Positions 6,001 to 61,818 of a DNA stretch of 61,818 bases are shown here, piece after piece. Below the pieces are notes generated by a model. It saw nothing but the letters and a program-made list of their open reading frames with translations. It did not search any database and had not been told where the DNA came from. The position numbers and the translations under genes were made by a program. Within the stretch, counting starts at the first letter, position 1, and every line of letters begins with the position of its first letter. Origin of the DNA: Pseudomonas phage Itty13; the sequence record MW460249.1; one strand, given 5' to 3'.

Positions 6001-9000
6001 TCATTTCCGGGTGGCGGTGGAAATACTCGTTCAGCGGAACGGTGTTGCCGTCCTTGTCGGTGTAGTCGCGCACCTCCATCCAGCTCTCGCCGGCTGGCTG
6101 CTCGCCCTCGGCGCGGCGGCGCATGAAGATGATGTCCGTGGTCACGGACGTGCCGGCGTTCGCCATGAAGGCGTCGTTCGGCAGGCGGATCGCGCCCAGG
6201 AAGTCGGCGCGGTCGGCCATGTAGCGGCGTGCCTTGTCGCCCGGCACGTCCATCATGCGGTTGGTCACGACCATGGCCAGCACGCCGCCGGGGCGCAGGC
6301 CGTCCAGGCTCTTGGCGAAGAAATAGTTGTGGATACTGAAGCCGCTCAGGTCCTTGCGGCGACCGTCGTACAGGCTCTCGCGGCCGAACGGCGGGTTGCC
6401 GATGGCGACATCGAAGTAGCCGTCAGGGATCAGGTAGTCCTGATAGCCCATGCGGGCGATCTTCGCCTCGGGATAGAGCTGGGTGGCGATTCCGCTGGTG
6501 ATGTGGTCCAGCTCCACGCCGTTCAACGCGGCGGCCTTGCGCAGCTCGTGCGGCATCAGGCCGAAGAAGTTGCCGGCGCCGACAGACGGCTCCAGCACCC
6601 GGCCACCGTTGAAGCCCAGGCGGGACACGGCGCCCCACATGGCGCGCACGATCTCCGGCGCGGTGTAGTGGGCGTTCTTCGAGGAGGATGCGGCGGCGCG
6701 GTATTCGTCGGCGGTCAGCAGGCCCTTCAGCTCGCCGACCTCGCTATCCCAGCCCTTGCTGGCGCTGCCGTCGCTGCGCTCGAAGGCCTGCGGGATGCCG
6801 CCCCAGCCGACGTATTTCGCCAGGATCGCCTGCTCGTCGGCGGTGGCGGCGCGGCCCTCGGCCTCCAACTGCTTCAGCAGGCGGATCGCCGCGACGTTGT
6901 TCCGGTATTTGGTCTTGGCGCCGCCCTGGCCGATCTCGTCGGCCTCGGTGATGGTGTAGTTCGCAGGGCGCTGCTCGGCGACGACGCCCCGCGACGGTGT
7001 TACGCCGCGCGGCTCTCGATCACCCCGTCCTCGGGATCGGGCTGGATTACCTGCATCGCCTCGTTGAACAGCGCTCCGGTCGCCGCCTCGTCCGCTTCGG
7101 TCTGCTCCTGCGGCGGGAACAGGTACAGCTCCCTCGTCGCTTCCCAGGCCTCGTGCGTCGTCATCCCGGCCGCTTCCAGCTCGCTCATTTCCGCGTGCGT
7201 CCGCTCCGCCGCTTCGCGCAGGGCGTTCCCGAGCTGGTTCTTGGCTTGCAGCTCCTTGTACCGATTCGGCAGGTGCTCCTTCCAGTGCTCCCGTGCTTGG
7301 CTGATCCAACTGTTCAGGTTCATTCGTGATCTCCATGGCCGGGCGGCGCATCTCCGGGGAAATGCCGCTGGCCTCCTGCATGATCATAGCAGCCAAGTCG
7401 GCGGCGGAAAGGTCCACCGGCGCCCAGCGGTTCGTTGCGGACGTGGCGAAGCGGTCGCCGGCCTTGCCGGACACGCGGAACATCACCTGCACGCCGCTGG
7501 GCGTGGTCGGGACGACGCCGCGCAGAGAGCCGCCGCCGATGGTGACATAGGCGTTGGCGCCGGTCTCCGGGTTGCGCATGGTCAGGGACACGTCGCCGCT
7601 AACGGCGATACCGGCCTCGTTCTTCGAGACAGGCTTCTCCAGGCGCCCCTTCTTGTCCTCGTGCGGCATGAAACCGTTGGGCTGCAACACGTCGGCCACG
7701 GCGCGCAGGTAGGAGGTCGCGTCCTTCAGGAACGCCTCTTTGGCCTTCTCGCCCTCGTCGGTGTAGCCGTCGATGTGATCGACGCCGAAATCCTGGGTCA
7801 GCGTGCGGTCGGACGCGGCGCCGGTCTTCACGGTGCGCTTCCGGGGCTTCTTCACCTCGGAGCCGAGCGCGCGGGCCTCCTCCTTCGGCAGCTCGCGGTT
7901 CAGCTCGGCATGCTCGCGCGCGGAGTCTTCCACGCTGGTCATGCCCTCGGTGTCGAGGCCCGGATAGTTCCGGGCGCCCTCCCAAAAGCTCAGCAGGTAC
8001 GGCTTGATCTTGTCGCCGAAGTCATCGGTCATCAGCTTGGCGTACTGGCCGAAGCTGCGCACGCCGGCCTCGATGTAGGCGCCGGCGATGGTCATGCCGT
8101 CGATCAGCACCTCTGGATCGATGCCGCTGTTCAACTGGCTCATCTTCGACTTCAGGCGGGCGCGGGCGGCGGCCACCTTGTCGGCGGTGAACAGCTTGTT
8201 GTCGGCGAAGATGTCGGCGGGCGCCTTGCCCTCGGTCGCGGCAGTGCCTATATTCTCAGGTGCGCCGGTCTCGCGGCTAGCTGTGTCATCCGCGAGTTTC
8301 GTAGTGGCGGTGTCCGTCCTAGCGTCACTACCGGCGTCTTTCACCTCATAGGCCGTCAGCAGCCAAGTCTTCGCATCCCCGTCCCAGGTCAGCCGCACGA
8401 TTGCCGTGCCCGACTTGTCGCGCAGGCGGATGCGGTTCTTCCCAGCCTGGGTGTCATCCTTCGATAGGCGCGAAATAAAGCCTTGCAGGTCGCCCAGCAC
8501 TTCCGGGTGCTTGGCGGCGATCTTCGCCAGCCCCATGCCTTCCTTGCCATTGCCCGGAGCCTCGCCCCACACGAGGTCGATGTCGCCCACGTCAGGGTGA
8601 TGCAGCGCTGCGGTCGCTTCGCCGGTCTTGTCGGCCATCAGGCGCTCGATGGCGGCCTGGGCGTTGTGCCGGTACTGGTCGTGGATGGGTCCGAACGGCC
8701 CGGTGTGTTGCGCTTCCGGCGCTCTCGTTTCGCTTTCCGAAACACTCGGGGCAGCAGAAGTCGCGCCGTTGTCCAGCGTGGCGCTCGGGAACTCGGCGAC
8801 AGCGGGCAGCAGGTCGCGGATCGGCGCGTCCAGGCGGATGATGCGCACGTCCTCTCCGGCGTCGCGCTTGGCGAGCCACTGGTGATGACCGTCCAGCACA
8901 TGGCCGTCGCTGGAGACGAGAATGGCGCGGTCGCCGCCGGTGAACTCCTTCGCCTGGGCGACCTTCTCGGGCGAGAACTCCGCCTGCGTCGGCTTCAGGC

Positions 9001-12000
9001 TGTCGGCTGGGACGGTCTGCTCCTCGTGCGCGATGCCGCGCGCGTTCAGGAAGTTGACCATGGCGCCGCGATGCTCGGCCTTGATCTGCGGCATCTCGGC
9101 TCGCGGCACGCTCAGGGTGCCGGAGTCTGGCGCGAAGGCGGACCACTCGCCGTCGATGTCCTGGCCGCGCATGTCTCCGCCGGCTTCGTCCTGGGTCTGC
9201 TGCTTGGCGTAGGTGACGCCGGCGCGGCTGGCTCGCTCCAGCTCGGCCCGGCTCAGGTTGGTCCGGGAGTTTGTTTCCGCATTGCGGACGACGACCTCGC
9301 CGTTCTTCTCGATGCGCTCGATGACGTAGGGCTTTCCGCCGGAGGCATAGCCGACATCGGCGGACGGCACGATGGTGTCGCCGACCTCGGCGCCGATCAG
9401 CTTGCGAGCGCGGTTGATGTGGCCAGAGGTCTTCGGCTGTTCCTGCTGCGCGGTAGGCGCCTGGGCGGCCGGCTCTTGCTCGGCAGGCGCCTTGCGTTTC
9501 TGGATGATCAGCTTTCCATCGACTGCCTTGGTGCGGAACTCCAGGCCAGGATTGAACTTCCGCATGTCTACGACGGCTTCCATGACCTCCTTTCGGCTGC
9601 GGTCGGTGAAGCCGGGCACGGCTTCCCAACCGTCCTGGGGCGCCTTCTCGCGGATCTCGAAGCGCGAGCGGCCGGCTTCGACAACCTCGTGACTGTCGGC
9701 CAGCTTCTTCTTGGCGATGAAGGCGTCGGCCTTCTCGCGGCTACCGAACCACTTCACGGGCGCCTGCTCGACCGGCTGCTCCGCCTTCACCTCCGGGGAG
9801 GCCTGCTGCTCGGGCTGCGCCGGCTGCTCCTCGACCGGAGCGGCCTGGGCCTTTTTCGCCTCGATGGCGGCCTCTACCTTGCGGCGCTCCTGAATGAGCG
9901 TCTTGTTCCATCCGCCAGCGTTGCGGGCCTGACCGGCGAGATACTTCAGGCGCTCGCGCAGCTCGGGCTCGTCCATCTCCTCGTAGGTGCGCGCGGGCTT
10001 GCGCTCCTCGGGAGCGGGCTCGGCCACCTGTTCGGTTTCGCCGAACAACTGCGGTTGCTCGGCCGCCTGTTCGGCCTGGGCTGGTGCCGGCTCCTCCGCC
10101 GGCTGTGCGGGCTGCTGCTCCTGCGCGGGCGCGGCAGGCTCCTCGACAGGCGCCGGCTGGGCGGCCTGCTGGGCGGCGGCTGCCTGCTCCTCGGGCACGA
10201 CGGTGACGGCGCCGGAGGCGACCTCGTCGGCGGTGATCTGATAGCTCTGGCCGTCGTCGCCACGGATCATCATGCCTTCCGGGGTCTCGGAGACCACGGC
10301 GCCGGTGATCGGATCGACACCTTCGGCGACCAGGGCGACACGGCGGCCATCGGCGGCGCTCTCGTCGGCGCGGCCGGGCTGGGCGCTCTGGAGCGCGCGA
10401 CCGAGCGGGCCGGACGGTGCCGGCTGCGGCGCGGGCTGGGGAGCGGGCTGGGGAGCGGGCTGGGGCTCCGGCTGCGGCGCGGGCGGGGCGGCCTGGACCT
10501 CCTGCGGTGCCTCGGCGGCCGGGGTCGTCTCAGCCTGGGCGGCCGGAGTGGTCGCTGCCGGCTGAGCGGCCGGGGTGGCGCCGTCCTCGCTGACGGTAGG
10601 CTCGATGCGCTCGCGCTGCTCCGCCGGCTTGCGGCTGGTCAGCTTCTCGGCGCCGGCGAACGTGCCACCCAAGGCGCCGCCGGTCATGGCGCCGATGATG
10701 GCGCTGTCGCGCACCTGTACCAGCGCTTCCTTCAAGGTCATGTCCGGGCTGATGTAGCCCTTGTCGATGCCGGCCTGGAGCGCGGCAGTCACCGCCTCCT
10801 GAGCGCCCTCCAAGACGGTGCCTTCGAGCGCCTTTTTCATGATGCCGGCGCCGGGCTTGAGCAGGCGTCCGAGAACAAGCGCCTCGGGTGCAGCCTCGGC
10901 GGCGGCAGTCAGCAGGGCATAGGTCTGCGCCTGCTCCTCGCTCAGGCCGTTCTCTCGGCCGGTGGCGTAGGCCTGACCGCCCACCTGTCCGCCCATGATG
11001 GCGGTTGCGATGCGCGGATTTCGGGTGACGACGGCAGCAGCCAGCATCGGCGCCATCTCGGCCAGCGAGCCGATGGCGGCGCTGCCGTAGTAGGCCATGC
11101 TCTCCGGCTCGGGGCGAACCTCGACCATCGTCTTCTTGGTCTGCTCGCGCCAGTCACGCGCGAAGGCCGAAATCTCCTTCGGGTTGATGATGCCGGCGGC
11201 GTCGAGCTGCTTCAGTTGCTGCTCGTTGAGCGACTGGGCGATGTTCTGCTTGACGGTGCGCAGCGCTTCGGGAATCGGCGTCTTCGGGTCGATCAGCTTC
11301 TCGTTGCCGGCCCAGGCCAGCAGCTTCATGTCGCCGGGCGTGATGCCGTACTGGCGCGCGCGGTCAGCGATGAAGCGCTCGCGCTCCAGGCCCAGGTCCT
11401 CGCCCGCCATCTGGATTAGGCCGGCAATCGACTGCTGGAAGCGCTCTGGCACGTTGGCCAGCGATGCGCCCGTGGCTTCGAGGAAACCCTGATACTCGCG
11501 GGTGTCCTTCGGCGGCAGGCCGGCGGCCAGACGGTTCTGGTTCTCCAGGGTGAGCGGCGACGGCTGGGCCTCGGCCTGCTGTTGCTGCTGGCGCTGCTGG
11601 TTCTCGATGGTGAGCGGAGACGGTGCGCTGACCTGAACAAACGGCTGGGTGGCGGCGAGCGCATCGCCCTGCATCATGGCCGCGCGGCGCTGGTAACGCT
11701 CGACCTGATCGGGCGTCAGCGCCGTGTAACGGCCGGGCTCCTCCTCGTCGAGCATCTTCTGGAGCTGCGCGACGGCCTGGGGCTGATCCGGGTTGGCGGG
11801 CGCACCAGCGCCAGCGGTGCCGGTCGGCGTGAACTGGCCGCCCCACTTGGCGACCTTCTCCATCACTTCCTCGCCGTAGCGAGCGGTCTTCGGCCCCCAC
11901 TGGCGGCGATCCGGGCCGGCGAAGTGCTCCTTGACCGCATCCTCCATGGAGTAACCCTTGTCCAGGCGCTCGCGTATCTGGCGCGCGGCGGCGTCGATGG

Positions 12001-12328
12001 ACTGAGCCGGATCGTAGGGGTTGATGCCGAGGCTGGCGGCAGTGCTGTCGAGATACTGCATCAAGCCCTTGGCGCGGCCCCACTTGGTAGGCTGGCCGAG
12101 CGCGCGCGGGTTGAAGCGCGACTCCTGATCGCCGAGCGCGAGCAGGACGTTGACCGGGACGTTGTACTTGACCGCCGACTGCTCGAACAGCGGCATAAGA
12201 TCGGTGGGAGCCGAGGAGGCGGAAGCCGCTGGCTGCCGCTCCGTAGCGTTGAACTGGAAGTCCGGCAGGCCTGCGGACGGAGCTTCGGACAATACCTTTT
12301 CGAGCGGCGACAGCGGTGCTTTTGCCAC
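1..12328 (-). CDS. Giant multidomain virion/ejection protein (SLT lytic transglycosylase - Gly-rich hydrophobic - Pro/Gln linkers - ParB-like nuclease - N6-adenine MTase - DEAH/SNF2 helicase; DarB-like). 3' end lies beyond the window start.
   Basis: Minus strand. GTG start at ~12328 with RBS AGGAAAG, immediately after the stop of the upstream gene. No complete minus-strand ORF is listed in this frame class (coordinate mod 3 = 1) anywhere in 1..12340, so the frame is open for more than 4100 codons. My own translation shows: SLT motif (YNVPVNVLLALGDQESRFNP...GLMQY); ParB-like (AILVSSDGHVLDGHHQWLAKRDAGEDVRIIRL) at ~8780-9060; MTase motif I VLEPSVGAGNFFG (~6560-6600) and motif IV NPPFG (~6385-6400); helicase Walker A HVVGAGKTFTMVAG (~4520-4545), DEAH (VDEAHEFKN, ~4040-4060), motif III FATGTPISN (~3885-3900), motif VI QREGRIIRQGN (~2840-2875). 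The plus-strand ORFs 161..4849, 5006..8467 and 8483..11419 are the antisense shadow. Confidence 0.8.
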   Translation of the reverse strand, partial: MAKAPLSPLEKVLSEAPSAGLPDFQFNATERQPAASASSAPTDLMPLFEQSAVKYNVPVNVLLALGDQESRFNPRALGQPTKWGRAKGLMQYLDSTAASLGINPYDPAQSIDAAARQIRERLDKGYSMEDAVKEHFAGPDRRQWGPKTARYGEEVMEKVAKWGGQFTPTGTAGAGAPANPDQPQAVAQLQKMLDEEEPGRYTALTPDQVERYQRRAAMMQGDALAATQPFVQVSAPSPLTIENQQRQQQQQAEAQPSPLTLENQNRLAAGLPPKDTREYQGFLEATGASLANVPERFQQSIAGLIQMAGEDLGLERERFIADRARQYGITPGDMKLLAWAGNEKLIDPKTPIPEALRTVKQNIAQSLNEQQLKQLDAAGIINPKEISAFARDWREQTKKTMVEVRPEPESMAYYGSAAIGSLAEMAPMLAAAVVTRNPRIATAIMGGQVGGQAYATGRENGLSEEQAQTYALLTAAAEAAPEALVLGRLLKPGAGIMKKALEGTVLEGAQEAVTAALQAGIDKGYISPDMTLKEALVQVRDSAIIGAMTGGALGGTFAGAEKLTSRKPAEQRERIEPTVSEDGATPAAQPAATTPAAQAETTPAAEAPQEVQAAPPAPQPEPQPAPQPAPQPAPQPAPSGPLGRALQSAQPGRADESAADGRRVALVAEGVDPITGAVVSETPEGMMIRGDDGQSYQITADEVASGAVTVVPEEQAAAAQQAAQPAPVEEPAAPAQEQQPAQPAEEPAPAQAEQAAEQPQLFGETEQVAEPAPEERKPARTYEEMDEPELRERLKYLAGQARNAGGWNKTLIQERRKVEAAIEAKKAQAAPVEEQPAQPEQQASPEVKAEQPVEQAPVKWFGSREKADAFIAKKKLADSHEVVEAGRSRFEIREKAPQDGWEAVPGFTDRSRKEVMEAVVDMRKFNPGLEFRTKAVDGKLIIQKRKAPAEQEPAAQAPTAQQEQPKTSGHINRARKLIGAEVGDTIVPSADVGYASGGKPYVIERIEKNGEVVVRNAETNSRTNLSRAELERASRAGVTYAKQQTQDEAGGDMRGQDIDGEWSAFAPDSGTLSVPRAEMPQIKAEHRGAMVNFLNARGIAHEEQTVPADSLKPTQAEFSPEKVAQAKEFTGGDRAILVSSDGHVLDGHHQWLAKRDAGEDVRIIRLDAPIRDLLPAVAEFPSATLDNGATSAAPSVSESETRAPEAQHTGPFGPIHDQYRHNAQAAIERLMADKTGEATAALHHPDVGDIDLVWGEAPGNGKEGMGLAKIAAKHPEVLGDLQGFISRLSKDDTQAGKNRIRLRDKSGTAIVRLTWDGDAKTWLLTAYEVKDAGSDARTDTATTKLADDTASRETGAPENIGTAATEGKAPADIFADNKLFTADKVAAARARLKSKMSQLNSGIDPEVLIDGMTIAGAYIEAGVRSFGQYAKLMTDDFGDKIKPYLLSFWEGARNYPGLDTEGMTSVEDSAREHAELNRELPKEEARALGSEVKKPRKRTVKTGAASDRTLTQDFGVDHIDGYTDEGEKAKEAFLKDATSYLRAVADVLQPNGFMPHEDKKGRLEKPVSKNEAGIAVSGDVSLTMRNPETGANAYVTIGGGSLRGVVPTTPSGVQVMFRVSGKAGDRFATSATNRWAPVDLSAADLAAMIMQEASGISPEMRRPAMEITNEPEQLDQPSTGALEGAPAESVQGAASQEPARERPARSGGADARGNERAGSGRDDDARGLGSDEGAVPVPAAGADRSGRGGDRSAVQRGDAGNPARSRGRGDREPRGVTPSRGVVAEQRPANYTITEADEIGQGGAKTKYRNNVAAIRLLKQLEAEGRAATADEQAILAKYVGWGGIPQAFERSDGSASKGWDSEVGELKGLLTADEYRAAASSSKNAHYTAPEIVRAMWGAVSRLGFNGGRVLEPSVGAGNFFGLMPHELRKAAALNGVELDHITSGIATQLYPEAKIARMGYQDYLIPDGYFDVAIGNPPFGRESLYDGRRKDLSGFSIHNYFFAKSLDGLRPGGVLAMVVTNRMMDVPGDKARRYMADRADFLGAIRLPNDAFMANAGTSVTTDIIFMRRRAEGEQPAGESWMEVRDYTDKDGNTVPLNEYFHRHPEMMLGDFGAYGSMYRDGEPALVAREGQDTQAELARAIDRLPEGVMTQAAAVKPETAETVRAENVRVGSMFLDGDTVKVRGEDVLGENTAEAVTFPNEKARERVVGMIGIRDVLARLRGLQLDPSATDKRIEAARKELNAAYDAFVKANGPINLDANKRLFRDDPTWPQLSALEDNFDKGLSAAMAKKTGEEARKPSAQKAAIFSKRTQQPYQAPTSAASAKDALVASLAETGRVDLDLMSELYGKSPDTIVKELGDLVYQDPVKGYVTRDEYLSGNVKAKLAKAREAAKSDPAFAANVEALEGVQPADIEAVDINVKPGAPWVPQEVMAEFANHVAEGSRARAIYNPATAKWSFLNVDATTAADQRFATGRVTLTGILEAAANQKTLQVYDSHPDGSRTLNEGETQLANDKVNAVKEAWDRWVWADDARRERLGRIYNDTYNTNVARDYDGSHLTFPGKVGDDIISLRPHQGNAVWRIVQADTTLLDHVVGAGKTFTMVAGAMELRRMGLAKKPMFVVPNHLVSQWAADFTKLYPGANVLAATKKDFEKENRKRLFARIATGDWDAVIVAHTSFGKVEVEPHEQAAFIQEQVDDLDASIELMRQVDGKNSRNVKETQKRRDALQEKLKKLIDADNKDDSLYWGELGVDALFVDEAHEFKNLAFSTSMNRVAGLGTQTGSQKAADLFLKVRQVLKATGGRNVVFATGTPISNTMAEMYTMQRYLDYVNLKGQGLSHFDAWARMFGEVVTDWELSPSGKYKMNSRFAKFVNMPELMQRYGSFADVVNRADINRMLAAQGKKLPVPKVRGGKPENVVVPRSQDQANYIGEPIKDADGNDTDDYPRGTLVWRSENLPKKAEKGSDNMLKIMGDARKAALDMRLIDPSYPDYEGSKVNVAAGNMRALYDKFHEDRGTQLVFIDLSTPKNARSAEAERLRDLARRADEGDEDAAAELDKVSPDELMALDSDFSVYDDLKQKLIAKGIPADEIAFIHDAKTDLQKEELFGKVRSGRVRFLFGSTAKMGAGTNVQDRLVALHHMDAPWRPSDLEQREGRIIRQGNKLYERDPEGFEVAIFRYATKQTLDSRMWQTIEGKANFIEQVRKGASGTREIEDVAGEAANAAEMKAAASGNPLILEEMSLRQKIRKLENERMNHEREQFRLRDSVRSAKRSIERADRLLDELRADAKRELPKEFVITINGKEFDKRKDAGEAILAQAAKMEANGTEEAEIGRYGDFTIRLERITKERYEAQVVGDGTYTAAFELDTDPLGLSMRVTNTVKDLGGAIEQVEQRKARAQADIPKLEEQAADWAKRDELAQAKTRHNDVLGQLKPKKKETPPQQPDVKASVADQLQRALNDGARVDAVVDGERFSVQPDGMYELIRSDAIDLRTPAEIASMPVADARARVFDDLLAKRGISMQHQKLGAINFNRAGITKSRANSNDPAKVKSIPMLDRIVEGAPYLGRREADGVTYHYLGRRIRVDGEPITTMVTLRETSDGRITYYNHTMLNDVRTIMVEPDDPSVNDRYYRRPDLRYELMSLSAPASPERIRDVLTSGPLGAQLQKLMDAGRLVVHADASTVPGASVPGMQAKTYDDGSVHMVAANVTPQNALAVLLHEMFHSGARPLVGTRRWAQLMVRLEQLYKQFEKSNGRARQFFDAARARVETAQRYLPMSDVLAVEEFGAYAIEEYESAPAAVRRWVDDVIGAIKDFLFRTFGVQLGQVTPAQLRAMALAAIRSEAQAPGASSMDGERYSIASLPENAPSDTEVEGWFSRKLTDAMAGPRSGGRWSVLALAPMDRMVEELAGGNQPAQEYLNLKRDMDAYRSKKHQQFDTIAQRWLKLIAFDRKGAQEMADIMHEATLAQTDPAEPFKTSITKADEQVMQYRPNSEAAMEAFAKKAADEQRREAHKALAERFRKLSPELQAQYREVRDAYKQMTEELDTILMENLGQALDIAGRKAERQYEKDMQEIRDDGLTGDARKEAEAAALKKYNTAMSKQRWNKR
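7000..7323 (-). CDS. Embedded or overprinted 107-aa ORF in an alternate frame inside the linker of the giant gene (hypothetical acidic helical protein)
   Basis: ATG with RBS GGAG 7 nt upstream. The product (MNLNSWISQAREHWKEHLPNRYKELQAKNQ...) has normal protein composition and GC3 of about 88%. Over the same 320 nt the giant-gene frame has GC3 of about 45% and translates to G/R/D/A-rich low complexity. The ORF is bounded by an upstream stop 21 codons before the ATG and by TAA at 7000. Confidence 0.45.
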   Translation of the reverse strand: MNLNSWISQAREHWKEHLPNRYKELQAKNQLGNALREAAERTHAEMSELEAAGMTTHEAWEATRELYLFPPQEQTEADEAATGALFNEAMQVIQPDPEDGVIESRAA

Positions 12329-12337
12329 GGGCTTTCC

Positions 12338-30468: not shown

Positions 30469-30886
30469 GCTCGCGCACCTCGAAGTGGCGGACGTTGCCG
30501 TTCTCGTCGGTGCGGAAGGCATCGGCGACGACGACGGTCTCGGTCGGCTTGGGCGGGATTTTCAGCAGCTCGCCCAGCTCGTCGCGGACGATGGACAGGA
30601 TGCGCAGCAGCGTGAAGCGGTTGAAGCCGTCGAGGCCCAGGCACTCGGCGAACTGGAAAGCGGTCTGCACCGCGTCCTGATGGTCGCCGACCTCCTCGCT
30701 CCACTTCCAGGCGTTCTCCAGGGGGACGACGCAAGGGGTGACGCGCTCGAAGCCCTCGCGGTAGCTCGGGACCAGCACCAGGGCCGGGCGCTGCTGCTCG
30801 CCGAACCATGTGCCGTAGGCGGTGATGTCGCCGTGCTGGCGGCGGAATGCGTGCTTGGTCAGGTCCAGGGCGATGCGGGTGCTCAC
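30461..30886 (-). CDS. Hypothetical protein (141 aa)
   Basis: GTG start with RBS GAGGA; the start overlaps the stop of the small membrane gene (GTGA). Its stop overlaps the portal ATG. Confidence 0.5.
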   Translation of the reverse strand: MSTRIALDLTKHAFRRQHGDITAYGTWFGEQQRPALVLVPSYREGFERVTPCVVPLENAWKWSEEVGDHQDAVQTAFQFAECLGLDGFNRFTLLRILSIVRDELGELLKIPPKPTETVVVADAFRTDENGNVRHFEVREHV

Positions 30887-31074
30887 TGCTGGCGGTCCTC
30901 GGTCGTGGTGTCGGAGTGCAGCCCCGGCTGGCGGACGACGCGGGCGATGGCCACCAGCGTGCCGAGGGCGCTGTTCAGGATTGCGTAGGCGGTCGGCGAC
31001 AGGCCGAGCTGCGGGAGGAGCGCCAGGGCGGCGTTCAGGATGATGATGACGACAGCGATGCGAACGCTCGCCAT
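30883..31074 (-). CDS. Small two-TM membrane protein (63 aa; pinholin-like topology)
   Basis: Sequence MASVRIAVVIIILNAALALLPQLGLSPTAYAILNSALGTLVAIARVVRQPGLHSDTTTEDRQQ has two hydrophobic helices and a charged C-terminus. RBS GGAAGG. An operator motif lies upstream. Confidence 0.45.
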   Translation of the reverse strand: MASVRIAVVIIILNAALALLPQLGLSPTAYAILNSALGTLVAIARVVRQPGLHSDTTTEDRQQ

Positions 31075-32746: not shown

Positions 32747-33012
32747 TGAAGCATCTCCCACACTCGCCGGGCGTGCGCCGACTTGAACCAGCGAGCGACC
32801 AGCAAGGTGACGCCGCATCGCTTGCAGCTCCAGCGCATCTCCTCGCCGATGGTCAGTGGCTCGCCGCCGGTGATGAGCTGGACGCGGATTTCGCGCTCCT
32901 CTCGGAGCTGATGGCGATGAAAGCCCAGGCGGCAGGCCAGCAGCCCGCTCCTACGCGAAAAGCGCTGGGCAATCCCCCACGCTGGTGGCCAGATTTCACG
33001 TAGGAACGTCAA
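32743..33012 (-). CDS. Hypothetical small protein with CxxC motif (89 aa, TTG start)
   Basis: High GC3. The TTG start overlaps the GIY-YIG stop (TTGA) and the stop overlaps the TerL GTG, so the three genes are translationally coupled. Confidence 0.35.
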   Translation of the reverse strand: MTFLREIWPPAWGIAQRFSRRSGLLACRLGFHRHQLREEREIRVQLITGGEPLTIGEEMRWSCKRCGVTLLVARWFKSAHARRVWEMLQ

Positions 33013-33521
33013 GACACCACCATGACGGCAGTGTTTCGCCGCTTCAGCTCGGCGATCAGCTCCTCGTCGGTGAACGTCTTCAGCATCTGCTGGCGGACGC
33101 CGTGGCTGCGATCAGGGTGCGCGGTTTCCGATGCGTTCAGCAGGCGCCCCTCGAAGCGCCACATCCAGAACTGCTCGCGGGCGTGCAGGAACAGGGCGTC
33201 GATCCTGCGCTCCACCACCGTGAACAGGAAGGCATCTTCGCCGTGCTCGTCCCATGCCTGCTGGAGCAGGGTGGACGAATGATCTCCACGGCGCAGTTCC
33301 CCTTTGTGCGCAGAGAAGCGCTGCTTCGCATTCCTCGTCTGTCCCACATATGCCTGAGCCGTTGGCTTGCAGATGATCAGGTATACGTCGCCAGTAGGAG
33401 CCGGCTCCTCTCGTTTATTCAGCCTGCCGTAGCCGTACTTCTCTTGCCACTCTCGCTCAATTCTCTCGTGATCATGCCTGTTCTTATGCCGGCGTCGCCA
33501 TCTCGGGGTTAGCTCGATCAT
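33009..33521 (-). CDS. GIY-YIG family endonuclease (homing-endonuclease-like) between terS and terL
   Basis: ATG at 33521 with RBS AGGGGG. GIY-YIG motif (GDVYLIICKPTAQAYVGQTRNAKQRFSAHKGELRRG...). Locally lower GC at the 5' end. Confidence 0.7.
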   Translation of the reverse strand: MIELTPRWRRRHKNRHDHERIEREWQEKYGYGRLNKREEPAPTGDVYLIICKPTAQAYVGQTRNAKQRFSAHKGELRRGDHSSTLLQQAWDEHGEDAFLFTVVERRIDALFLHAREQFWMWRFEGRLLNASETAHPDRSHGVRQQMLKTFTDEELIAELKRRNTAVMVVS

Positions 33522-34267
33522 TGCTCGCCCCCTGGCTTCAGCGTGGCGCCGGAGACCTGTTGCAGCAGCAGTGCAATCGGGTTCTCGGCGTCGCCCTTCA
33601 GGGTCAGCTTGTCGTTGAACATGCCCAGGTGGCGCGCGACGTTCTCCAGGGCCTTGCCCTGATCCTGCATTTTCACCTCCAGGCCTTCCTTCGTGACCTT
33701 CACGCCGGCGTAGAGCGCTCGGGCTGACGGGCCGAGGTGGCGGGTGTCGGCCACGAACACATCGCCATGGCCCTCGCCGAAGCACTTCGGGCACCTGGGA
33801 TGCGGCGGCAGGGTCGGGTCGAAGCCGTATCCGCCCTCGTCGCTGGGCGGCTCGCGGTCATCCTTCGCGGCGTTGTCGCAAGCGCGCTCGTACTCGGCCT
33901 CGTCCTTCCAGTGGTAGGCGTGGTCCCGGCCATAGCAATGCCGGCAGCAGACGCGGCGGTGCTGGATCAGCTCGTTCGGGTCGGCGGTGGCGATCTCCCA
34001 CCAGCGCTGGAGCACCATCTCTTGCGTGATCTGCGTCCGTGCAGACAGGTCCTTGCGCGCTTCGGCGATGGCCTGGGCGATTTCAGGTTTTTTCAACAGC
34101 TCGTCGCCGATCTGACCGGCGGTCTTGGCGCTGTATTTCGCGCGGATGGCCGCCTGAGTGGCGTTCAGGTCAACGAGGTACTCCTCGACGAAACGCTGTT
34201 GCTTCGGCGTGAGTGGGCGTGTGGATTTCGTGGATGCCGCTGCATCTTGCGCGCGCTTCGTGGGCAT
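33518..34267 (-). CDS. terS: Terminase small subunit with Cys-rich insertion
   Basis: N-terminal region (LTPKQQRFVEEYLVDLNATQAAIRAKYSAKTAGQIGDELLKKPEIAQAI) matches the terminase small-subunit (Terminase_2) pattern. Head of the late minus-strand operon, with an operator motif ~60 nt upstream. Confidence 0.7.
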   Translation of the reverse strand: MPTKRAQDAAASTKSTRPLTPKQQRFVEEYLVDLNATQAAIRAKYSAKTAGQIGDELLKKPEIAQAIAEARKDLSARTQITQEMVLQRWWEIATADPNELIQHRRVCCRHCYGRDHAYHWKDEAEYERACDNAAKDDREPPSDEGGYGFDPTLPPHPRCPKCFGEGHGDVFVADTRHLGPSARALYAGVKVTKEGLEVKMQDQGKALENVARHLGMFNDKLTLKGDAENPIALLLQQVSGATLKPGGEQ

Positions 34268-34323: not shown

Positions 34324-34347
34324 GACTGTTTCGATTGTAAAAACGGA
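34324..34347. promoter_or_regulatory. Operator motif (CTGTTTCGATTGTAAAAACGG / TTTTTACAATCGAAACAG) between divergent terS and the 34357 gene
   Basis: It abuts the RBS of the plus-strand gene and lies ~60 nt upstream of the terS ATG. Confidence 0.4.
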
Positions 34348-34356
34348 GCGGATATA

Positions 34357-34656
34357 GTGCAAACGGCTATCGAGTTCACCGTGGTGGAGATGGGGAACGG
34401 GGTTTTCCGGTTCCAAGACACCGAGCGGATCACAGGGGAGCCCCAGGTTCCCCCCGACGCGGTCGAGGTTGACCTGGGATATGTGGGCTGGCGTGGCGCT
34501 CTTGAAGATGCCTGTCGCTTGGCCGGAGTGGAACTGTACGATGTGTCGCTGTGGAAAGCCTACGTGTGGTCGAGAGCTGGCGCGGTCGCGCATGTGATAG
34601 CGTTGCGCTCTGACTGCACGCCCCCGCCGGGGGATCGCCTGTCTGATACGAAGTGA
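34357..34656 (+). CDS. Hypothetical protein (99 aa, GTG start)
   Basis: RBS GGAGCGG. An operator motif abuts the RBS. Moderate GC3. Sits at the edge of the ORF-free structured region. Confidence 0.4.
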   Translation: MQTAIEFTVVEMGNGVFRFQDTERITGEPQVPPDAVEVDLGYVGWRGALEDACRLAGVELYDVSLWKAYVWSRAGAVAHVIALRSDCTPPPGDRLSDTK

Positions 34657-40730: not shown

Positions 40731-41177
40731 ATGACTTCCCATGACCGCAACCTGCTGAAAACCGACGATATTCTGGCGTTCCAGCGCTGGATGGACGAGA
40801 ACAAGCTGCCCTGGCGGAAGGGCAAGGGCGAGTTCGAGCTGATGCAGGTGAAGCTGTCCCGTGGCTGGGCGGCGATCTTCACCAACACCGCCGGCGCCGT
40901 GACCACTCCGGCGGCACTGCGCGAGATGATCGCGCGCTTCAAGAAAGGCCTGCCGTACACCGGCCAGACGCCGCGCTCCCAGGCTCAGGCCGAAGGCGCC
41001 GACTTCCTCAACGACCTGCGCGACGACATCGCCATGCGCGTGCTGCCCTCGCTGCTCATCGACGCATACCACACTCGCGGCTCGACGCCGGAGGCGATGG
41101 CTGAATCCGCTTACGACATCGCGGACGCCATGCTGGCCGAGCGCGCGAAGCGCCTGGGCAGAGGATCGCAGGCATGA
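40731..41177 (+). CDS. Hypothetical protein (148 aa)
   Basis: RBS GAGAGG then ATG, within track ORF 40713..41177. Confidence 0.5.
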   Translation: MTSHDRNLLKTDDILAFQRWMDENKLPWRKGKGEFELMQVKLSRGWAAIFTNTAGAVTTPAALREMIARFKKGLPYTGQTPRSQAQAEGADFLNDLRDDIAMRVLPSLLIDAYHTRGSTPEAMAESAYDIADAMLAERAKRLGRGSQA

Positions 41178-41335
41178 AGCGCCAGGCCGAGCGCGCCACC
41201 CCGGCGCAGGTTCAACAGCACATCGAGCGCCAGCACGCCCTGGGCGAGCGCATGATCGGCGACCGCGACATGCCGCGTCCGGTCGAGCTGATCGTGACCG
41301 GGCTGCTGCTGGTCCTGGCCTTCCTGATCTGAGGC
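41174..41335 (+). CDS. Small tail-anchored membrane protein (53 aa)
   Basis: ATG overlaps the upstream stop (ATGA). C-terminal TM segment VELIVTGLLLVLAFLI. Confidence 0.4.
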
Positions 41336-55970: not shown

Positions 55971-56129
55971 ATGAAAAATAGACTGGACGAAATTAACCGG
56001 AGCATACTGCTCAGCGGGGCCATTGCCTGGGGATCGGGATTGATCGCCGCAATGGTCATCGGCGGCGGCGCGCTGGCCCTCCCTCTGATCAAGAGCCTGA
56101 TCGGATGGCAGTGGGGGTGCCATTTCTAA
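55971..56129 (+). CDS. Small hydrophobic membrane peptide (52 aa) with low-GC 5' end
   Basis: RBS GAGGTGA then ATG; product MKNRLDEINRSILLSGAIAWGSGLIAAMVIGGGALALPLIKSLIGWQWGCHF. Local GC drops sharply. Lies just before alpA and int. Confidence 0.4.
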   Translation: MKNRLDEINRSILLSGAIAWGSGLIAAMVIGGGALALPLIKSLIGWQWGCHF

Positions 56130-57639: not shown

Positions 57640-57944
57640 TCGATTTCCTCTTGGGTTGCGATACCCCCAAGGATCAAATTCGAGTCCCCGTTTCTACCCC
57701 CACCGATGTGGGGTAGCGTGGGAAAGGCCGGGACCGGATAGGACAGGGAAAGACGCCTAACCCATTGAATTATCAACAGGATTTGAACGGCGCGGGAAAG
57801 GTTGGGAAAGGAAAATGGCGGAGACGGAGCCCCTCGAATAGAACGGCCAAGCTGCTGGAACTGCTACGCTTTTTCGGCGCTACCCCGCGCCGATACCCGG
57901 AAATCTACCCCCAGGCGCGAAGGCCTGGGGTTTTCCACAGTTTC

Positions 57945-58481
57945 CTACTCCCGCTGAAGCGCTTCGCACTGCCGGGCGTAGTCTTGCAGGTAGGCTATCT
58001 TCGCCCGGTCTTCGAGGATTCCTCCTCGGGCGGCAAGAACGTTGCGTCCAGCAGCTCCAGAGAGTTCGACGGTGGTGTCATCGCCCAGGCCGCCGGCGGC
58101 GGCATTCTGGCCGCCTTGGTTGCCACCGGCTGGAGCTGGACAGCGGGCTTGGACGCGCAGCCGGCGCTCGCCAGCGGCAACAGCATCAGCAAGACGAGCG
58201 TTCTCGGCTTGGGCATTCTTCAGGTCCTCGGTGTGCTTGCGGTCGGAGTCGGCCAGCCGCTGCTCGGCGGCCTGCTGCTTTTCCAAGGCGCCGGCGGTCG
58301 CCCGCTGCGCCTCGTCGGTGATGCGCTTCAGTTCGGTCGCGTGGTCGGTCTGGAGCTGGCTGTAGGCCCGGTCCTTGTCGGCGAGCTGCTCGCCGTAGCG
58401 CCAGCCCTGCGCGGTGCCGGCGGCGATGGCGCCGGCCAGGAATGAGGAGAGGGTGAGAATGGCGTAGCCCTTGAGCGTCAC
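57945..58481 (-). CDS. Rz: Rz-like i-spanin (178 aa, GTG start)
   Basis: N-terminal TM (YAILTLSSFLAGAIAAG) and a periplasmic coiled coil (...AEQRLADSDRKHTEDLKNAQAENARLADAV...) typical of the Rz family. Rz1 is embedded in another frame. Confidence 0.7.
   Translation of the reverse strand: MTLKGYAILTLSSFLAGAIAAGTAQGWRYGEQLADKDRAYSQLQTDHATELKRITDEAQRATAGALEKQQAAEQRLADSDRKHTEDLKNAQAENARLADAVAAGERRLRVQARCPAPAGGNQGGQNAAAGGLGDDTTVELSGAAGRNVLAARGGILEDRAKIAYLQDYARQCEALQRE
57995..58216 (-). CDS. Rz1: Rz1-like o-spanin lipoprotein embedded in Rz (73 aa)
   Basis: Signal peptide plus lipobox LLMLLPLASAGC, Pro-rich mature part. Lies wholly inside Rz in a different frame. Confidence 0.65.
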   Translation of the reverse strand: MPKPRTLVLLMLLPLASAGCASKPAVQLQPVATKAARMPPPAAWAMTPPSNSLELLDATFLPPEEESSKTGRR

Positions 58482-58759
58482 TTCGCCTGCTCCGTGGCCT
58501 TCTCGACCGCCGTTTCCGCCTTGTTGGCGGCCTCGGTCGCTTTGGCAATGCAGATGTGAATGGACTCGTCCTTGGCGGCCAGCGCCTCGGCGTATGCGGC
58601 ATTCAGGGCGGTGATCCGCTGTTCAGCGGAGCCACGCTCCCACATCATCCCCAGCGGTAGCCCGATGGCGACGCCGGCGGCGAACAGCACGCCGACGATG
58701 CCCCAGGTTTCCGCGCTGCGGAAGCCGACCTTGCAGTTAGTGCTGCGACCGTCGTTCAT
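58478..58759 (-). CDS. Single-TM membrane protein with helical periplasmic domain (93 aa; holin/antiholin candidate)
   Basis: ATG at 58759 (track ORF starts at 58795). TM segment WGIVGVLFAAGVAIGLPLGMMW. Stop overlaps the Rz start. Confidence 0.45.
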   Translation of the reverse strand: MNDGRSTNCKVGFRSAETWGIVGVLFAAGVAIGLPLGMMWERGSAEQRITALNAAYAEALAAKDESIHICIAKATEAANKAETAVEKATEQAK

Positions 58760-59102
58760 CTCCAGTCCTCTCCAGCGCCCCCCGCAGTGTGACAATTTCC
58801 TGCTTCATCTGTTCGATGCGCGACTCCAGCATCTTCTGGCTGGTTTCCAGGGCGCGGACGCTGCCGATCAGCTCGCCTACCTCCCGGTAGAGCTTGTTGC
58901 GCTCGGCTGTGACCTCTTGCAGGCTCAGGCGCAGCTCCTTGTTCTCCTCTTGGAGCCGGTCGATCATGTCCACTTCGGCCCTGGCGTTGGCGATCTCCGC
59001 CGCGTCCTTGGAGAGCTTCGTGCGGAGCCACAGGCCGCCCATCACCAGACTGGTCAGGCCGGCGCCGATCATCCCCCACAGGGTTTGCGGTTGCTCGTCC
59101 AT
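58737..59102 (-). CDS. Single-TM membrane protein with long coiled coil (121 aa; holin/lysis-regulator candidate)
   Basis: ATG at 59102 overlaps the endolysin stop (TGATG). TM segment LWGMIGAGLTSLVMGGLWL followed by a heptad-rich C-terminus. Confidence 0.45.
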   Translation of the reverse strand: MDEQPQTLWGMIGAGLTSLVMGGLWLRTKLSKDAAEIANARAEVDMIDRLQEENKELRLSLQEVTAERNKLYREVGELIGSVRALETSQKMLESRIEQMKQEIVTLRGALERTGDERRSQH

Positions 59103-59701
59103 CAGGCAATGCCCCCTCCCGCGCTCTTGAAGGCGGCCGCCAGCTTCGTGTCGTACTGGTTCGCCGCGTAGTTCGGGCCGTTGTAGAGAAGCGCGAAGGT
59201 CTTCCAGTCCTGCCGCTTCAGCGCCTCGTGCAGCTTCGGGTTCGCCTTGACGAACCGGACGAAGGCGTCGAGCTGGTCGCCCTCGCTGTAGTACATGGCG
59301 TTGATGAAGGCCTGGAGCGTGGGATAGCCGAGCGTTTCCCAGTGGTAGCCCATGATCTGGAACAGACCCCAGCTCGCCGACTCCAGGGCGCACTCCCGGT
59401 CGATCAGCTTGGCGGCGCGGTCCATGCGGTCAGGCTGCGCGGACTCCTTGCCGTAGGCGCCGGGCTTCGGGTTGATGATGTCGGGGTAGCGCTCGACCAG
59501 GGCGTCGGCGCGGGTGAAGCCGTACTTGGCCTTGGTGCGCCGGTACATGATGTGGCGCTCGAACAGGACGACCGGGCGGCCATCCGGCAGGAAGCCGTCG
59601 CCACGGCTTTCGACAGCGCAGACCGCTTTCACGGCTGCGACCGGCACCGACAGAGAGTCGGCGGCTTTCTGAATATCGGGATCGGTGAGTTTCTTGCGCA
59701 C
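59102..59701 (-). CDS. Endolysin, N-acetylmuramidase family (199 aa from GTG at 59701)
   Basis: RBS GGAGGC then GTG. Catalytic region VAAVKAVCAVESRGDGF...WGLFQIMGYHWETLGY...FVRFVKANPKLHEALKRQDWKTFALLYNGPNYAAN matches the phage muramidase family. No TM segment. Confidence 0.7.
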   Translation of the reverse strand: MRKKLTDPDIQKAADSLSVPVAAVKAVCAVESRGDGFLPDGRPVVLFERHIMYRRTKAKYGFTRADALVERYPDIINPKPGAYGKESAQPDRMDRAAKLIDRECALESASWGLFQIMGYHWETLGYPTLQAFINAMYYSEGDQLDAFVRFVKANPKLHEALKRQDWKTFALLYNGPNYAANQYDTKLAAAFKSAGGGIA

Positions 59702-59767
59702 AGACGTGCCTCCAGTTTCCACGGGGGGCGGCACGTCATGCGCTGCTGATCACATTCTATACAGCAT

Positions 59768-59790
59768 ATTGCCATTATCGAAACAGTGAA
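59768..59790. promoter_or_regulatory. Operator motif (TTGCCATTATCGAAACAGTG) upstream of the endolysin gene
   Basis: About 70 nt upstream of the lysis cassette; followed on the gene strand by TATAGAAT. Confidence 0.4.
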
Positions 59791-59884: not shown

Positions 59885-61818
59885 TTACCGATAGATAGCG
59901 TCACCGAGGTTATCACGAAGGCGCCGATCAAGTCGCGGGTTCAGCGCGACGCCGCCCTCGGTGCGCTGGCTGTACCGCTGCCGCGACCGGATCGACCGGG
60001 TGATGGTCTCGGCCGTGATGGCGACCTCCCGGTGCTCCTTGTTAAAGGCCTTCACGTCCTCGCGGATCGCCTGCATCTCCTCCCGGTCCTTCAGCTTGTA
60101 GGCCGTGGCGTAGCGGTCCATCAGGCGCCGGCGCTCGTCCATGATCCGCTTCTCGGCGTTCTTCAGGGCCGAGTTGCGCTCGTACTGCTCCGCCAGCACC
60201 GCCGGGGTGAAGCCGAGCAACTGCGCCGCGATCTCGTTCGGCTTGAAGCGGTCCACCAGGGCATCGCCGCGCAGGGTCTGCGCGCCCTCGGTGGCGAACC
60301 GGCCAGCCCGCATCATGTCCTTGATGAACTTCGGCGACATCGTCTCGACGCCACGGAAGACGTGCCCGTCGAGCATCTGGTTCCAGCCGCGCCACATGTT
60401 CTGTGCGATGCCCGGCACCGCCCCGAGGAGCTGGGTCTGCCAGTAGTTGAACTCGTCTTCGCCTTCGAGCTGGCGGTCGGGCGAGCGGAACCACAGGTCA
60501 GGCATACCGACGCGCTCGGAGATGGAGATGCCCAGGGCATGGCCGGGCACGCCGTTCAGCAGGAAGCCGGCGGCGGTCGGGCCGAGCAGGTCCACGGTCC
60601 CCTTCTTGAAGCGCTCCTCCGCGTCGTCGCCGAAGAACATGCTGGCCAGGGCCATCGCCAGACCGTACAGCCACACGCCGCGCACGCCGGCGTTCAGCGC
60701 CATTAGGCCGGTGACGCCCGCCAACTGGCGCACGGCCTCGCGGCGGCCTTCCTTGTCCCCGCGCAGCGCCTGATGGGTATCGCGGAACAGGCGCCACAGC
60801 ATGTTGATCTGGTAGTTGCGGAAGACCAGGGCGACCTTCGCCACGTCGCCGTGCATGGCGCGCGGGCGGTTGGTGTTGCCGTAGTCGAAATGCACCTTGT
60901 AGGTCATGCGCGAGGCCTGATCGACGGCGCGCTCGTGGTCCAGGCCATCCTTCCGGGCCATCCGGTAGGCGGCCAGGAAAGTCACCTCGCGGTTGAGCCG
61001 TTCGGCCTGATGGAACTGCCACGCAATAATCCCCATGACCTTGTTCCGCACCGGGCTGTACTCGACGCCGGTTTCCCCGACGCCGGCGAGGTTGTGCGAC
61101 TGCGAGCTGTCCACCACGCCGGAGTCGTAGGCCGCGCGCATCGCCTTGCGCTCGTCCTCGGTCAGGCCGGAGGAGCGCTCGGCGCGGCCGCGCCCGGTGA
61201 TGAAGTTGCCCAGGGCGCGGTTCAGCTCCACGGTGGTGCGGGCGGCGCCGTACTTGGCGCCCATGATCGGCACGCCCAGGACAACGGTTTGCGACAGGTT
61301 CACCAGCGCGGCCGCCGGCGACATCGACAGGTGGTAGACGAACGCGGCGGACGTGATGTGCTGGGCGAGCGCCCCGCCTTTCGGGTTCATGACGTAGTCG
61401 TGCCGGCGGTTCAGTTCGTTCACCACGGCGGTGTCGCGCTCCGGGTTGCTGCTGACGCGCGCCGCGTCCTTCGCGAGGTCGAGCTGTTCCTGCATCCGCG
61501 CGCCGTACTTCAGGCGGCCGAGCTGGTGCGCACCGTGGAACATGCGCGAGGCGAAGGCGCGCAGGGCGTCGGAGCTGAAGCCGGAGCGGCCCTTCCGGTG
61601 GATAAAGCCCTTGCGCATGCTCATGTCCGGCATGCTTTCGAGGAAGCGCTGCCAGACCTGATCCTTGACAGAATCGGGCACGCTGGCGCCGGCCAGGATG
61701 TCCTCAACGTCGGAGACGAAGCGCGGATCGACCGAGCCGCGCACGTCGGCGTCGTTGTTCAGCAGGCCGGTCTGCACGGCGCCCAGGCGCGCCGCCTGCT
61801 TGGCGAAACGCTGTTGCT
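59885..61818 (-). CDS. Large protein, 5'-truncated at the window end (at least 644 aa). Possibly the C-terminal continuation of the giant gene if the record is a circular genome.
   Basis: The reading frame stays open to the right edge (…QQRFAKQAARLGAVQTGLLNN…). Same frame class (coordinate mod 3 = 1) as the giant ORF that exits at position 1. Confidence 0.55.
   Translation of the reverse strand, partial: QQRFAKQAARLGAVQTGLLNNDADVRGSVDPRFVSDVEDILAGASVPDSVKDQVWQRFLESMPDMSMRKGFIHRKGRSGFSSDALRAFASRMFHGAHQLGRLKYGARMQEQLDLAKDAARVSSNPERDTAVVNELNRRHDYVMNPKGGALAQHITSAAFVYHLSMSPAAALVNLSQTVVLGVPIMGAKYGAARTTVELNRALGNFITGRGRAERSSGLTEDERKAMRAAYDSGVVDSSQSHNLAGVGETGVEYSPVRNKVMGIIAWQFHQAERLNREVTFLAAYRMARKDGLDHERAVDQASRMTYKVHFDYGNTNRPRAMHGDVAKVALVFRNYQINMLWRLFRDTHQALRGDKEGRREAVRQLAGVTGLMALNAGVRGVWLYGLAMALASMFFGDDAEERFKKGTVDLLGPTAAGFLLNGVPGHALGISISERVGMPDLWFRSPDRQLEGEDEFNYWQTQLLGAVPGIAQNMWRGWNQMLDGHVFRGVETMSPKFIKDMMRAGRFATEGAQTLRGDALVDRFKPNEIAAQLLGFTPAVLAEQYERNSALKNAEKRIMDERRRLMDRYATAYKLKDREEMQAIREDVKAFNKEHREVAITAETITRSIRSRQRYSQRTEGGVALNPRLDRRLRDNLGDAIYR

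Follow-up and report, generated by a model that had tools for sequence, protein, structure and literature searches.

This analysis concerns host lysis by Pseudomonas phage Itty13 (sequence record MW460249.1), in which a lysis cassette encodes a soluble endolysin and spanins without an evident holin. The window, by which we mean the whole analysed stretch of 61,818 nucleotides, has 65% G+C and no tRNA genes. It is a complete podophage genome of the Bcep22/PEp14/Parlo type, whose terL, portal and capsid genes show ~74% nucleotide identity to those of PEp14, Pavtok, DC1, Bcep22 and SopranoGao. The sequence is circularly permuted, since a DarB-like open reading frame (ORF) of ~4,755 aa is interrupted at position 2 and resumes at 61816 without a change of frame, 61818 being divisible by 3.

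A lysis cassette with two single-pass membrane proteins

Five genes make up the cassette, all on the minus strand (Table 1). The DarB-like gene is followed by a muramidase gene, by genes for a 121-aa and a 93-aa protein (p121 and p93), and by Rz with Rz1 embedded in it, after which come a hairpin and a tyrosine integrase gene. An initial annotation, made from the letters of the sequence, had read the same genes in the same order, with a muramidase devoid of a transmembrane domain (TMD) or signal-arrest-release (SAR) segment, and we found all of them in place. They are not chance ORFs, as judged from the family E-values and from conservation in >20 loci. All junctions had also been described as short overlapping motifs. 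This proved correct for endolysin/p121 (TGATG, where the p121 start overlaps the endolysin stop) and for p93/Rz (GTGA, where the GTG start of Rz overlaps the p93 stop), but the p121/p93 junction is a 23-nt overlap and not a 4-5-nt motif. No further hydrophobic ORF was found between 57.9 and 59.9 kb on either strand, so that the cassette contains no multi-TMD ORF and, as had been claimed, no class I/II holin. Besides the spanins, p121 and p93 are its only membrane proteins.

The endolysin starts at GTG 59701, with GGAGG 7 nt upstream, the longest ORF beginning at 59734. It matched PF11860 with 210 bits (cut-off 22.3) over profile positions 2-173 of 175, as well as phrog_1224/2860 "endolysin," and is 60% identical to the endolysin of phage GP4, an orthologue of LysP2110. 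Its best 19-residue hydrophobic window reached a Kyte-Doolittle hydropathy (KD) of only 1.26 and a summed apparent free energy of +11.2 kcal/mol, which indicated that the enzyme has neither a TMD nor a SAR segment. At the other end of the cassette, Rz carries an N-terminal TMD, and Rz1 lies wholly inside it in the +1 frame, which is the embedded two-component spanin architecture. The lipobox-like sequence of Rz1, LASAG/C, has an atypical Ser at -3, a position usually taken by Leu, Val or Ile; the homologues of PEp14 and Parlo have I-S-G-C and L-A-A-C, respectively.

p121 consists of an acidic N-tail, a Gly-rich TMD at residues 8-26, which is its one hydrophobic segment, the juxtamembrane stretch LRTKLSKD, and a coiled coil of ~75 residues. 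Between residues 41 and 115, L, I, V or M occupied 76% of the heptad a/d positions versus 29% overall, and AlphaFold2 returned a single helix from 8 to 120 with a predicted local distance difference test score (pLDDT) of 89.9. A profile search against 1.8 billion representatives gave 253 cluster representatives of the p121 family at E<=1e-3. By tblastn, the family was found in phages Skulduggery; SopranoGao, LASTA and ZX1; Parlo; PEp14, Pavtok and Stean; Cruim01 and Aurca01; and in sixteen Ralstonia phage records. No curated family covered p121 or p93, Pfam and NCBIfam giving sub-threshold coiled-coil noise only, and a PDB profile search returned generic coiled coils.

p93 has a basic N-tail, with the conserved motif C-x-K/R-V-G-F/L-K/R-S-x-E-x-W, a TMD at about residues 18-40 (KD 2.2) with a GxxxGxxxG pattern, and an Ala-rich helix; AlphaFold2 gave a low-confidence helix over 16-92 (pLDDT 64.6). 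A GGAG precedes its start codon. With p93, tblastn against phages gave zero matches, and homologues came through PHROG and a local hidden Markov model (HMM) only. The label "lipoprotein" given to this protein in PEp14 and Cruim01 led us to consider p93 as a lipoprotein or o-spanin, a candidate that we rejected, as the hydrophobic segment of the window's p93 is not followed by a Cys.

The topologies of p121, p93 and p75, a third protein described below, were predicted by the positive-inside rule only. Among 82 members of the p121 family, the N-tail had on average 0.37 K/R and 2.05 D/E, and the first 15 residues past the TMD had 4.21 K/R. An excess of K/R after the TMD was seen in all but one of them (81/82) and points to an N-out/C-in orientation; a basic motif of consensus LRRxLSxD comes straight after the TMD. 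In the p93 family, K/R were more numerous in the N-tail than in the C-flank in 8 of 11 members, with ties in the other 3, and the predicted orientation is N-in/C-out with ~50 periplasmic residues. The soluble part of p121 is better conserved than its TMD, which suggests that it engages in a specific interaction.

The two proteins had initially been likened to class III holins/antiholins or to spanins. T4 gpt (class IIIa) and phiKZ gp142 (class IIIb) are, like p121 and p93, single-TMD inner-membrane proteins with one large soluble domain, and both are N-in/C-out (PMC12894885). The predicted orientation of p93 agrees with class III, whereas that of p121 is the reverse, and neither protein matched the gpt family or any Pfam holin family. 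The ~50 periplasmic residues predicted for p93 also fall short of a large periplasmic regulatory domain. A spanin-like topology is unlikely, given that p93 has no lipobox and that a complete Rz/Rz1 pair is already present.

We ran local HMMs of the six proteins over 20 related loci. The order muramidase, p121, p93, Rz/Rz1 was recovered in 16 of these, including two loci from Ralstonia phages in which a DUF7940 gene is inserted between muramidase and p121. One further locus had muramidase, p121 and p93 and no match to the Rz HMM. A p93 homologue lay directly 3' of the p121 homologue in 17/20 loci, and the pair always travelled together; in all cases that were inspected, the p93 start was either within p121 or at its end. 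Two Skulduggery-type loci had a different lysozyme and a p93 of 47-53 aa (SKUL_31, at 3347..3490 of locus L001; 4341..4502 of L018), reduced to the basic N-tail motif and the TMD. Since these phages do without the Ala-rich helix, the periplasmic helix of p93 would be dispensable for the role of the pair. In Pseudomonas phage Cruim01 (PP179333; L007, L015 and L029), the pair is found by itself behind NinG, where the late operon begins, in a position like that of lambda S. There it is annotated "chemotaxis protein" and "lipoprotein," and 30 kb away lie the GH19 endolysin and the spanins, a DUF2514 i-spanin with an o-spanin (lipobox LLATGC) that is embedded and unannotated. Scans of viral contigs with narrower alignments gave 2 and 8 loci, and two scans of species-representative genomes found no prophage copies.

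The presence of an unusual holin arrangement had been considered, but the cassette is of a deposited and annotated type, recurring in this phage group and annotated in PEp14, Parlo and GP4-like phages, and is not new. In Erwinia phage PEp14 (JN585957), Serratia phage Parlo (MK618715) and the Klebsiella phages of the SopranoGao/LASTA group, we found the same order of DarB-like gene, PF11860, phrog_2658, phrog_6065, Rz/Rz1 and integrase, together with the overlapping junctions and the podophage backbone (~74% nucleotide identity), with p121 proteins 33-39% identical to that of the window. A DarB-like gene also lies just upstream of the cassette in GP4 and Skulduggery. In the Center for Phage Technology annotation of Parlo, the p121 homologue is the holin and the p93 homologue a hypothetical protein, with the endolysin before them and the i-spanin and o-spanin after them. 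The p121 homologues of PEp14 and the SopranoGao group are likewise labelled holin, and that of Parlo has been called a "class III holin," as an annotation only (PMC6606913). A related phage, Bcep22, has a pinholin and a SAR endolysin, which indicates that the lysis cassette can be exchanged as a module within the group.

A DUF7940 gene between terL and portal

The initial annotation had also pointed out a two-TMD holin-like ORF of 63 aa near terL. The ORF is real and belongs to the DUF7940 "holin" family, but it is only the 3' part (30883..31074) of a longer gene, here called p75. The start of p75 is probably GTG 31110, because the gene has been called with 75 aa in a 99%-identical relative and only the 75-aa form spans the DUF7940 profile. 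Indeed, p75 matched DUF7940 (PF25612) over profile positions 1-63 of 63 (56.6 bits, cut-off 27, E=3.8e-15) and phrog_1356 "holin" at 2e-18, and was aligned with the DUF7940 members of GP4, Cimandef and Rollin. Its hydrophobic segments lie at residues 14-32 (KD 2.42, summed apparent free energy +0.49) and 41-59 (KD 1.62), and its N-tail holds 4 K/R; p75 thus has the two helices, basic N-terminus and basic/polar C-tail expected of a DUF7940 protein. The term pinholin-like, used initially for this ORF, does not suit it: TMD1 is the most hydrophobic segment of the protein instead of a weak SAR segment, the endolysin lacks a SAR segment, and expression of the family member HolP2110 led to extracellular beta-galactosidase. 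An internal ATG at 31074 (codon 13), with GGAAGG 8 nt upstream, would yield the 63-aa form. We considered a holin/antiholin-style dual start (Met1 and Met13) as a family feature and rejected it, Met13 being absent in 2 of 4 relatives (P0031 and P0033).

The stop codon of p75 overlaps the GTG of a Bcep22 gp50-like gene (GTGA), which itself overlaps the portal gene, and p75 is thus an integral part of the late strand. The p75 locus and the cassette are on the same strand, in one late gene block of ~38 kb, and are ~33 kb apart along it. With tblastn, p75 gave one weak match only. In a metagenomic relative, ~75% identical, one locus carried terS, terL, DUF7940, a gene of 141 aa and portal, and another, without DUF7940, carried DarB, muramidase, p121, p93, Rz and integrase. 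As both the terL-DUF7940-gp50-like-portal order and the DUF7940-less cassette recur in this relative, the displaced position of the DUF7940 gene is a stable feature of the clade.

Unlike p75, the DUF7940 genes of GP4, Cimandef and P2110 are adjacent to the endolysin gene. In GP4, a 75-aa ORF that is clearly related to p75 and matched DUF7940 at 8.7e-17 lies between the muramidase and the p121 homologue, and a DUF7940 gene comes after the muramidase in 31 Ralstonia phage records and also in Cimandef. The GP4/P2110 cassette otherwise resembles that of the window, with the orthologous muramidase, p121-like and p93-like proteins and Rz/Rz1; its DUF7940 gene is directly after the endolysin, whereas the window has a distant family member ~33 kb upstream. 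The P2110 copy, HolP2110, is 97% identical to that of GP4 and was studied experimentally (PMC10299722). This protein of 76 aa, encoded just downstream of the endolysin, was located in the membrane fraction of E. coli; when expressed alone it stopped growth, after which beta-galactosidase and nucleic acids appeared outside the cells (PMC10299722). LysP2110 alone had no effect, and HolP2110 together with LysP2110 lysed the E. coli culture (PMC10299722). Azide brought lysis forward, and deletion of residues 1-30 abolished activity (PMC10299722). The p121 and p93 homologues and the spanins passed unnoticed in that study (PMC10299722).

The authors called the HolP2110 family unique to Ralstonia phages (PMC10299722), but the window, Pseudomonas phage Rollin, cyanophages and an Aliivibrio phage have members as well, so the DUF7940 family is broader than that. 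In contrast, DUF7940 was not found in PEp14, Parlo or SopranoGao/LASTA. A local DUF7940 HMM, built from seven sequences, gave no match when run over the full genomes of PEp14 and Cruim01, over Parlo except for 8.6 kb within its DarB gene, and over those parts of Skulduggery that were scanned. No hidden DUF7940 gene was found in the 360-bp unannotated gap from TerL to gp50 of Bcep22, and no other late multi-TMD candidate was seen in PEp14, Parlo or Cruim01.

The distant DUF7940 gene of Rollin (OR577172; L014, 2606..4366) is two genes upstream of the lysin, in the order 132-aa protein (coiled coil with a central TMD), DUF7940, 74-aa lipoprotein and GH19-type lysin. This is another lysis cassette that pairs DUF7940 with a coiled-coil membrane protein.

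Table 1. Positions of the lysis genes and of other features in the window
Feature	Position	Strand	Family match or remark
Endolysin, soluble N-acetylmuramidase, 199 aa	59102..59701	-	PF11860/DUF3380, 3.4e-62
p121, 121 aa	58737..59102	-	phrog_2658, 5.8e-23; one TMD and coiled coil
p93, 93 aa	58478..58759	-	phrog_6065, 1.3e-12; one TMD
Rz, i-spanin, 178 aa	57945..58481	-	PF03245, 2e-17, 64 bits (cut-off 25.4); phrog_2466, 2.8e-40
Rz1, o-spanin lipoprotein, 73 aa	57995..58216	-	PF06085, 6.3e-9, 35.9 bits (cut-off 27.9); phrog_3198, 2.7e-17
p75, 75 aa	30883..31110	-	DUF7940/HolP2110-like; between terL and the gp50-like gene just upstream of portal
DarB-like giant ORF, C-terminal part	59888..61816	-	directly upstream of the cassette; rest at 12337..2
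Promoter-like site TCGATA-16-TAGAAT	59754..59781	-	gap between DarB-like gene and endolysin; weak
Promoter-like site	34363..34334	-	upstream of packaging genes; weak
G+C-rich hairpin CCCCAGGC-n6-GCCTGGGG	57909..57930	-	perfect 8 bp; 15 nt past the Rz stop, ahead of the integrase gene
52-aa ORF, early region	41174..41332	+	C-terminal TMD
52-aa ORF MKNRLDEINRSILLSGAIAWGSGLIAAMVIGGGALALPLIKSLIGWQWGCHF	55971..56129	+	near the integrase end of the genome
ORF upstream of terL	33009..33794	-	GIY-YIG-like motif

Which protein makes the hole

The reading that we favour, and in which we place moderate confidence, is that p75 is the hole-former in this phage, p121 and p93 being a timing complex of the holin/antiholin type that is able to act as the holin where DUF7940 is absent. 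During late expression, p75, a two-TMD protein whose topology is predicted as N-in/C-in, would accumulate in the inner membrane until it makes a hole through which the soluble PF11860 muramidase can reach the cell wall; disruption of the outer membrane would then fall to Rz and Rz1. The holin gene of this clade would have moved from the cassette to the terL-portal junction, without leaving the late strand and with its translation coupled to that of the following gene. p121 and p93, as a conserved and translationally coupled pair of opposite predicted topologies, one with a cytoplasmic leucine-zipper helix and the other with a glycine-zipper TMD, would most likely form one heteromeric inner-membrane complex of the holin/antiholin type that sets the timing of lysis. 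Gene order, family memberships, synteny and the published HolP2110 experiments are observations, whereas the topologies, the p121-p93 complex and the division of labour are inferred. A role of p75 as a holin is supported by its family membership, by the HolP2110 experiments and by the place of DUF7940 within the cassette in Ralstonia phages. Experimental support of any kind exists for no holin family of this genome other than DUF7940.

Several points weigh against this reading. PEp14, Parlo and Cruim01 lyse their hosts without DUF7940, so that DUF7940 is not required with this type of cassette, and p121/p93 could be the primary holin in this phage too; it must be added that the local DUF7940 HMM may miss divergent members. 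The link between p75 and HolP2110 rests on profiles, because the pairwise alignment is weak, p75 and the GP4 DUF7940 protein sharing 29% identity over 35 residues. The evidence on HolP2110 itself comes from pET overexpression in E. coli, with no phage mutant, and its authors take TMD1 as a cleavable Sec signal peptide (PMC10299722); a two-TMD class II protein seems to us the simpler reading. As for the topologies, which are predictions, a plain K/R count mispredicts the control Rz, and p121 is set apart only by its acidic, K/R-free N-tail and by the R-x-K that immediately follows the TMD.

The main rival, which we consider less probable, is that the actual holin system here is p121/p93, one protein being a single-TMD holin and the other its partner or antiholin, and that p75 is a redundant second holin or has a membrane role in packaging or morphogenesis. 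The holin labels given to p121 homologues in PEp14, Parlo and the SopranoGao group, with the class III assignment in the Parlo paper, speak for it, as do the lambda-S-like position in Cruim01 and the lack of DUF7940 or of any other late multi-TMD candidate in PEp14, Parlo and Cruim01, where p121/p93 may be the holin for this very reason. Single-TMD holins also exist, such as phiKZ gp142, which is able to release a soluble endolysin (PMC12894885), and the mycobacteriophage protein LysF1b, N-out/C-in with a single TMD, is needed for efficient lysis (PMC13056207). However, Hol and Lys of P2110 lysed E. coli without the pair. The soluble domain of p121 is better conserved than the TMD, as would be expected of a regulator or interaction partner more than of a hole-former, and the clade of the window keeps its DUF7940 gene, translationally coupled within the late strand.

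More tentatively still, p121 and p93 may be a two-component holin made of two single-pass proteins in opposite orientation, whose antiparallel TMDs would make up the hole-forming unit and amount to a split class II hairpin. Translational coupling would then supply equal amounts of both, the pairing would involve the glycine zipper of p93, and the leucine zipper of p121 would control oligomerization and timing. If true, such a holin would constitute a topological class that is new for phages of Gram-negative bacteria, the pair being sufficient alone in PEp14, Parlo and Cruim01 and coexisting here and in Ralstonia phages with a DUF7940 holin.

As to known systems, the closest functional analogue may be LysF1a/LysF1b of mycobacteriophages, which, like LysA2a/LysA2b of D29, combine a two-TMD N-in/C-in holin-like protein with a single-TMD N-out/C-in protein, both needed for efficient lysis (PMC13056207; bioRxiv 10.64898/2026.08.27.747656). 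In D29 the single-TMD gene is far from the cassette, a precedent for split loci, whereas in the window it is the two-TMD gene that is displaced. The hosts are mycobacteria, with another envelope, and a sequence relationship to the window proteins is not expected.

We also compared p121 with the releasin gp25 of phage Mu (DUF2730, ~100 aa). Both have a short periplasmic N-tail, an N-terminal TMD, basic juxtamembrane residues, a helical cytoplasmic domain and, for p121 by prediction, an N-out/C-in topology, and gp25 is encoded just downstream of the endolysin (PMC9239132). It would thus be conceivable, albeit improbable, that p121 acts as an accessory factor, releasin-like or otherwise, which is tethered to the membrane, assists the endolysin or holin from the cytoplasm and makes no holes, with p93 as its anchor or partner. 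In addition to this architecture, the p121 gene lies within a few genes downstream of the endolysin, as DUF2730 genes are, and some DUF2730 families pair with endolysins lacking a SAR domain (PMC9239132). On the other hand, homology to the Mu releasin was rejected: BLASTP gave no alignment, hhalign a probability of 6.7%, and PF10805 was not matched by p121, by its Parlo and Skulduggery homologues or by the 82 family members, the Mu gp25 control matching at 2.5e-13. We therefore kept gp25 as an architectural analogue only. The partner of gp25 is a SAR endolysin in a holin-less transposable phage, whereas the endolysin here has no SAR anchor to release and the phage is not Mu-like; moreover, phages with the pair only would be left with no holin. 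It is more improbable yet that the pair is unrelated to lysis and merely travels with the cassette, serving for instance superinfection exclusion or another membrane function. Such roles are common for small phage membrane proteins, but the place of the pair strictly between endolysin and spanins, with overlapping frames, in 16/20 loci that span Erwinia, Serratia, Klebsiella, Ralstonia and Pseudomonas phages and metagenomes, argues against it, as does its predicted late expression, coupled to that of the other lysis genes.

Neighbouring features and implications

The initial annotation had raised the idea that lysis timing is split between operons, which is unproven; the only support for separate transcription units would be the two weak promoter-like matches, one ahead of the endolysin (a consensus scan gave 1 site vs 0.4 expected) and one upstream of the packaging genes (a single consensus match vs 0.4 expected). 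Lysis genes are scattered over the genome in mycobacteriophage D29 and in Campylobacter phages, and likewise in T4. The hairpin past Rz, which has no T run and was not called in a terminator scan, is a possible end of the late transcript. Elsewhere in the window, the 52-aa ORF of the early region has a coding-type G+C content at third codon positions (GC3) of 0.94 and would be tail-anchored. The other 52-aa ORF is very hydrophobic, had no NCBIfam match and may be a moron or a small membrane toxin. The counterpart, in a relative, of the ORF with the GIY-YIG-like motif matched Terminase_2 and LEM-3_GIY-YIG.

The apparent anomaly of a soluble endolysin that lacks a holin would find its explanation in a displaced member of an experimentally supported holin family. 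Beside it, phrog_2658/phrog_6065 is a conserved, portable and translationally coupled two-gene module of lysis cassettes, present in phages of at least five host genera and without a curated family. The published label of "class III holin" is a poor match for the topology predicted for p121. As the module is accompanied by an independent holin in this phage and in Ralstonia phages but not in PEp14, Parlo and Cruim01, it offers a ready comparison for deciding whether it acts as holin, antiholin or timing regulator. Once settled, the role of the pair would correct the automatically propagated labels "hol-like chemotaxis," "chemotaxis protein" and "lysis protein B."

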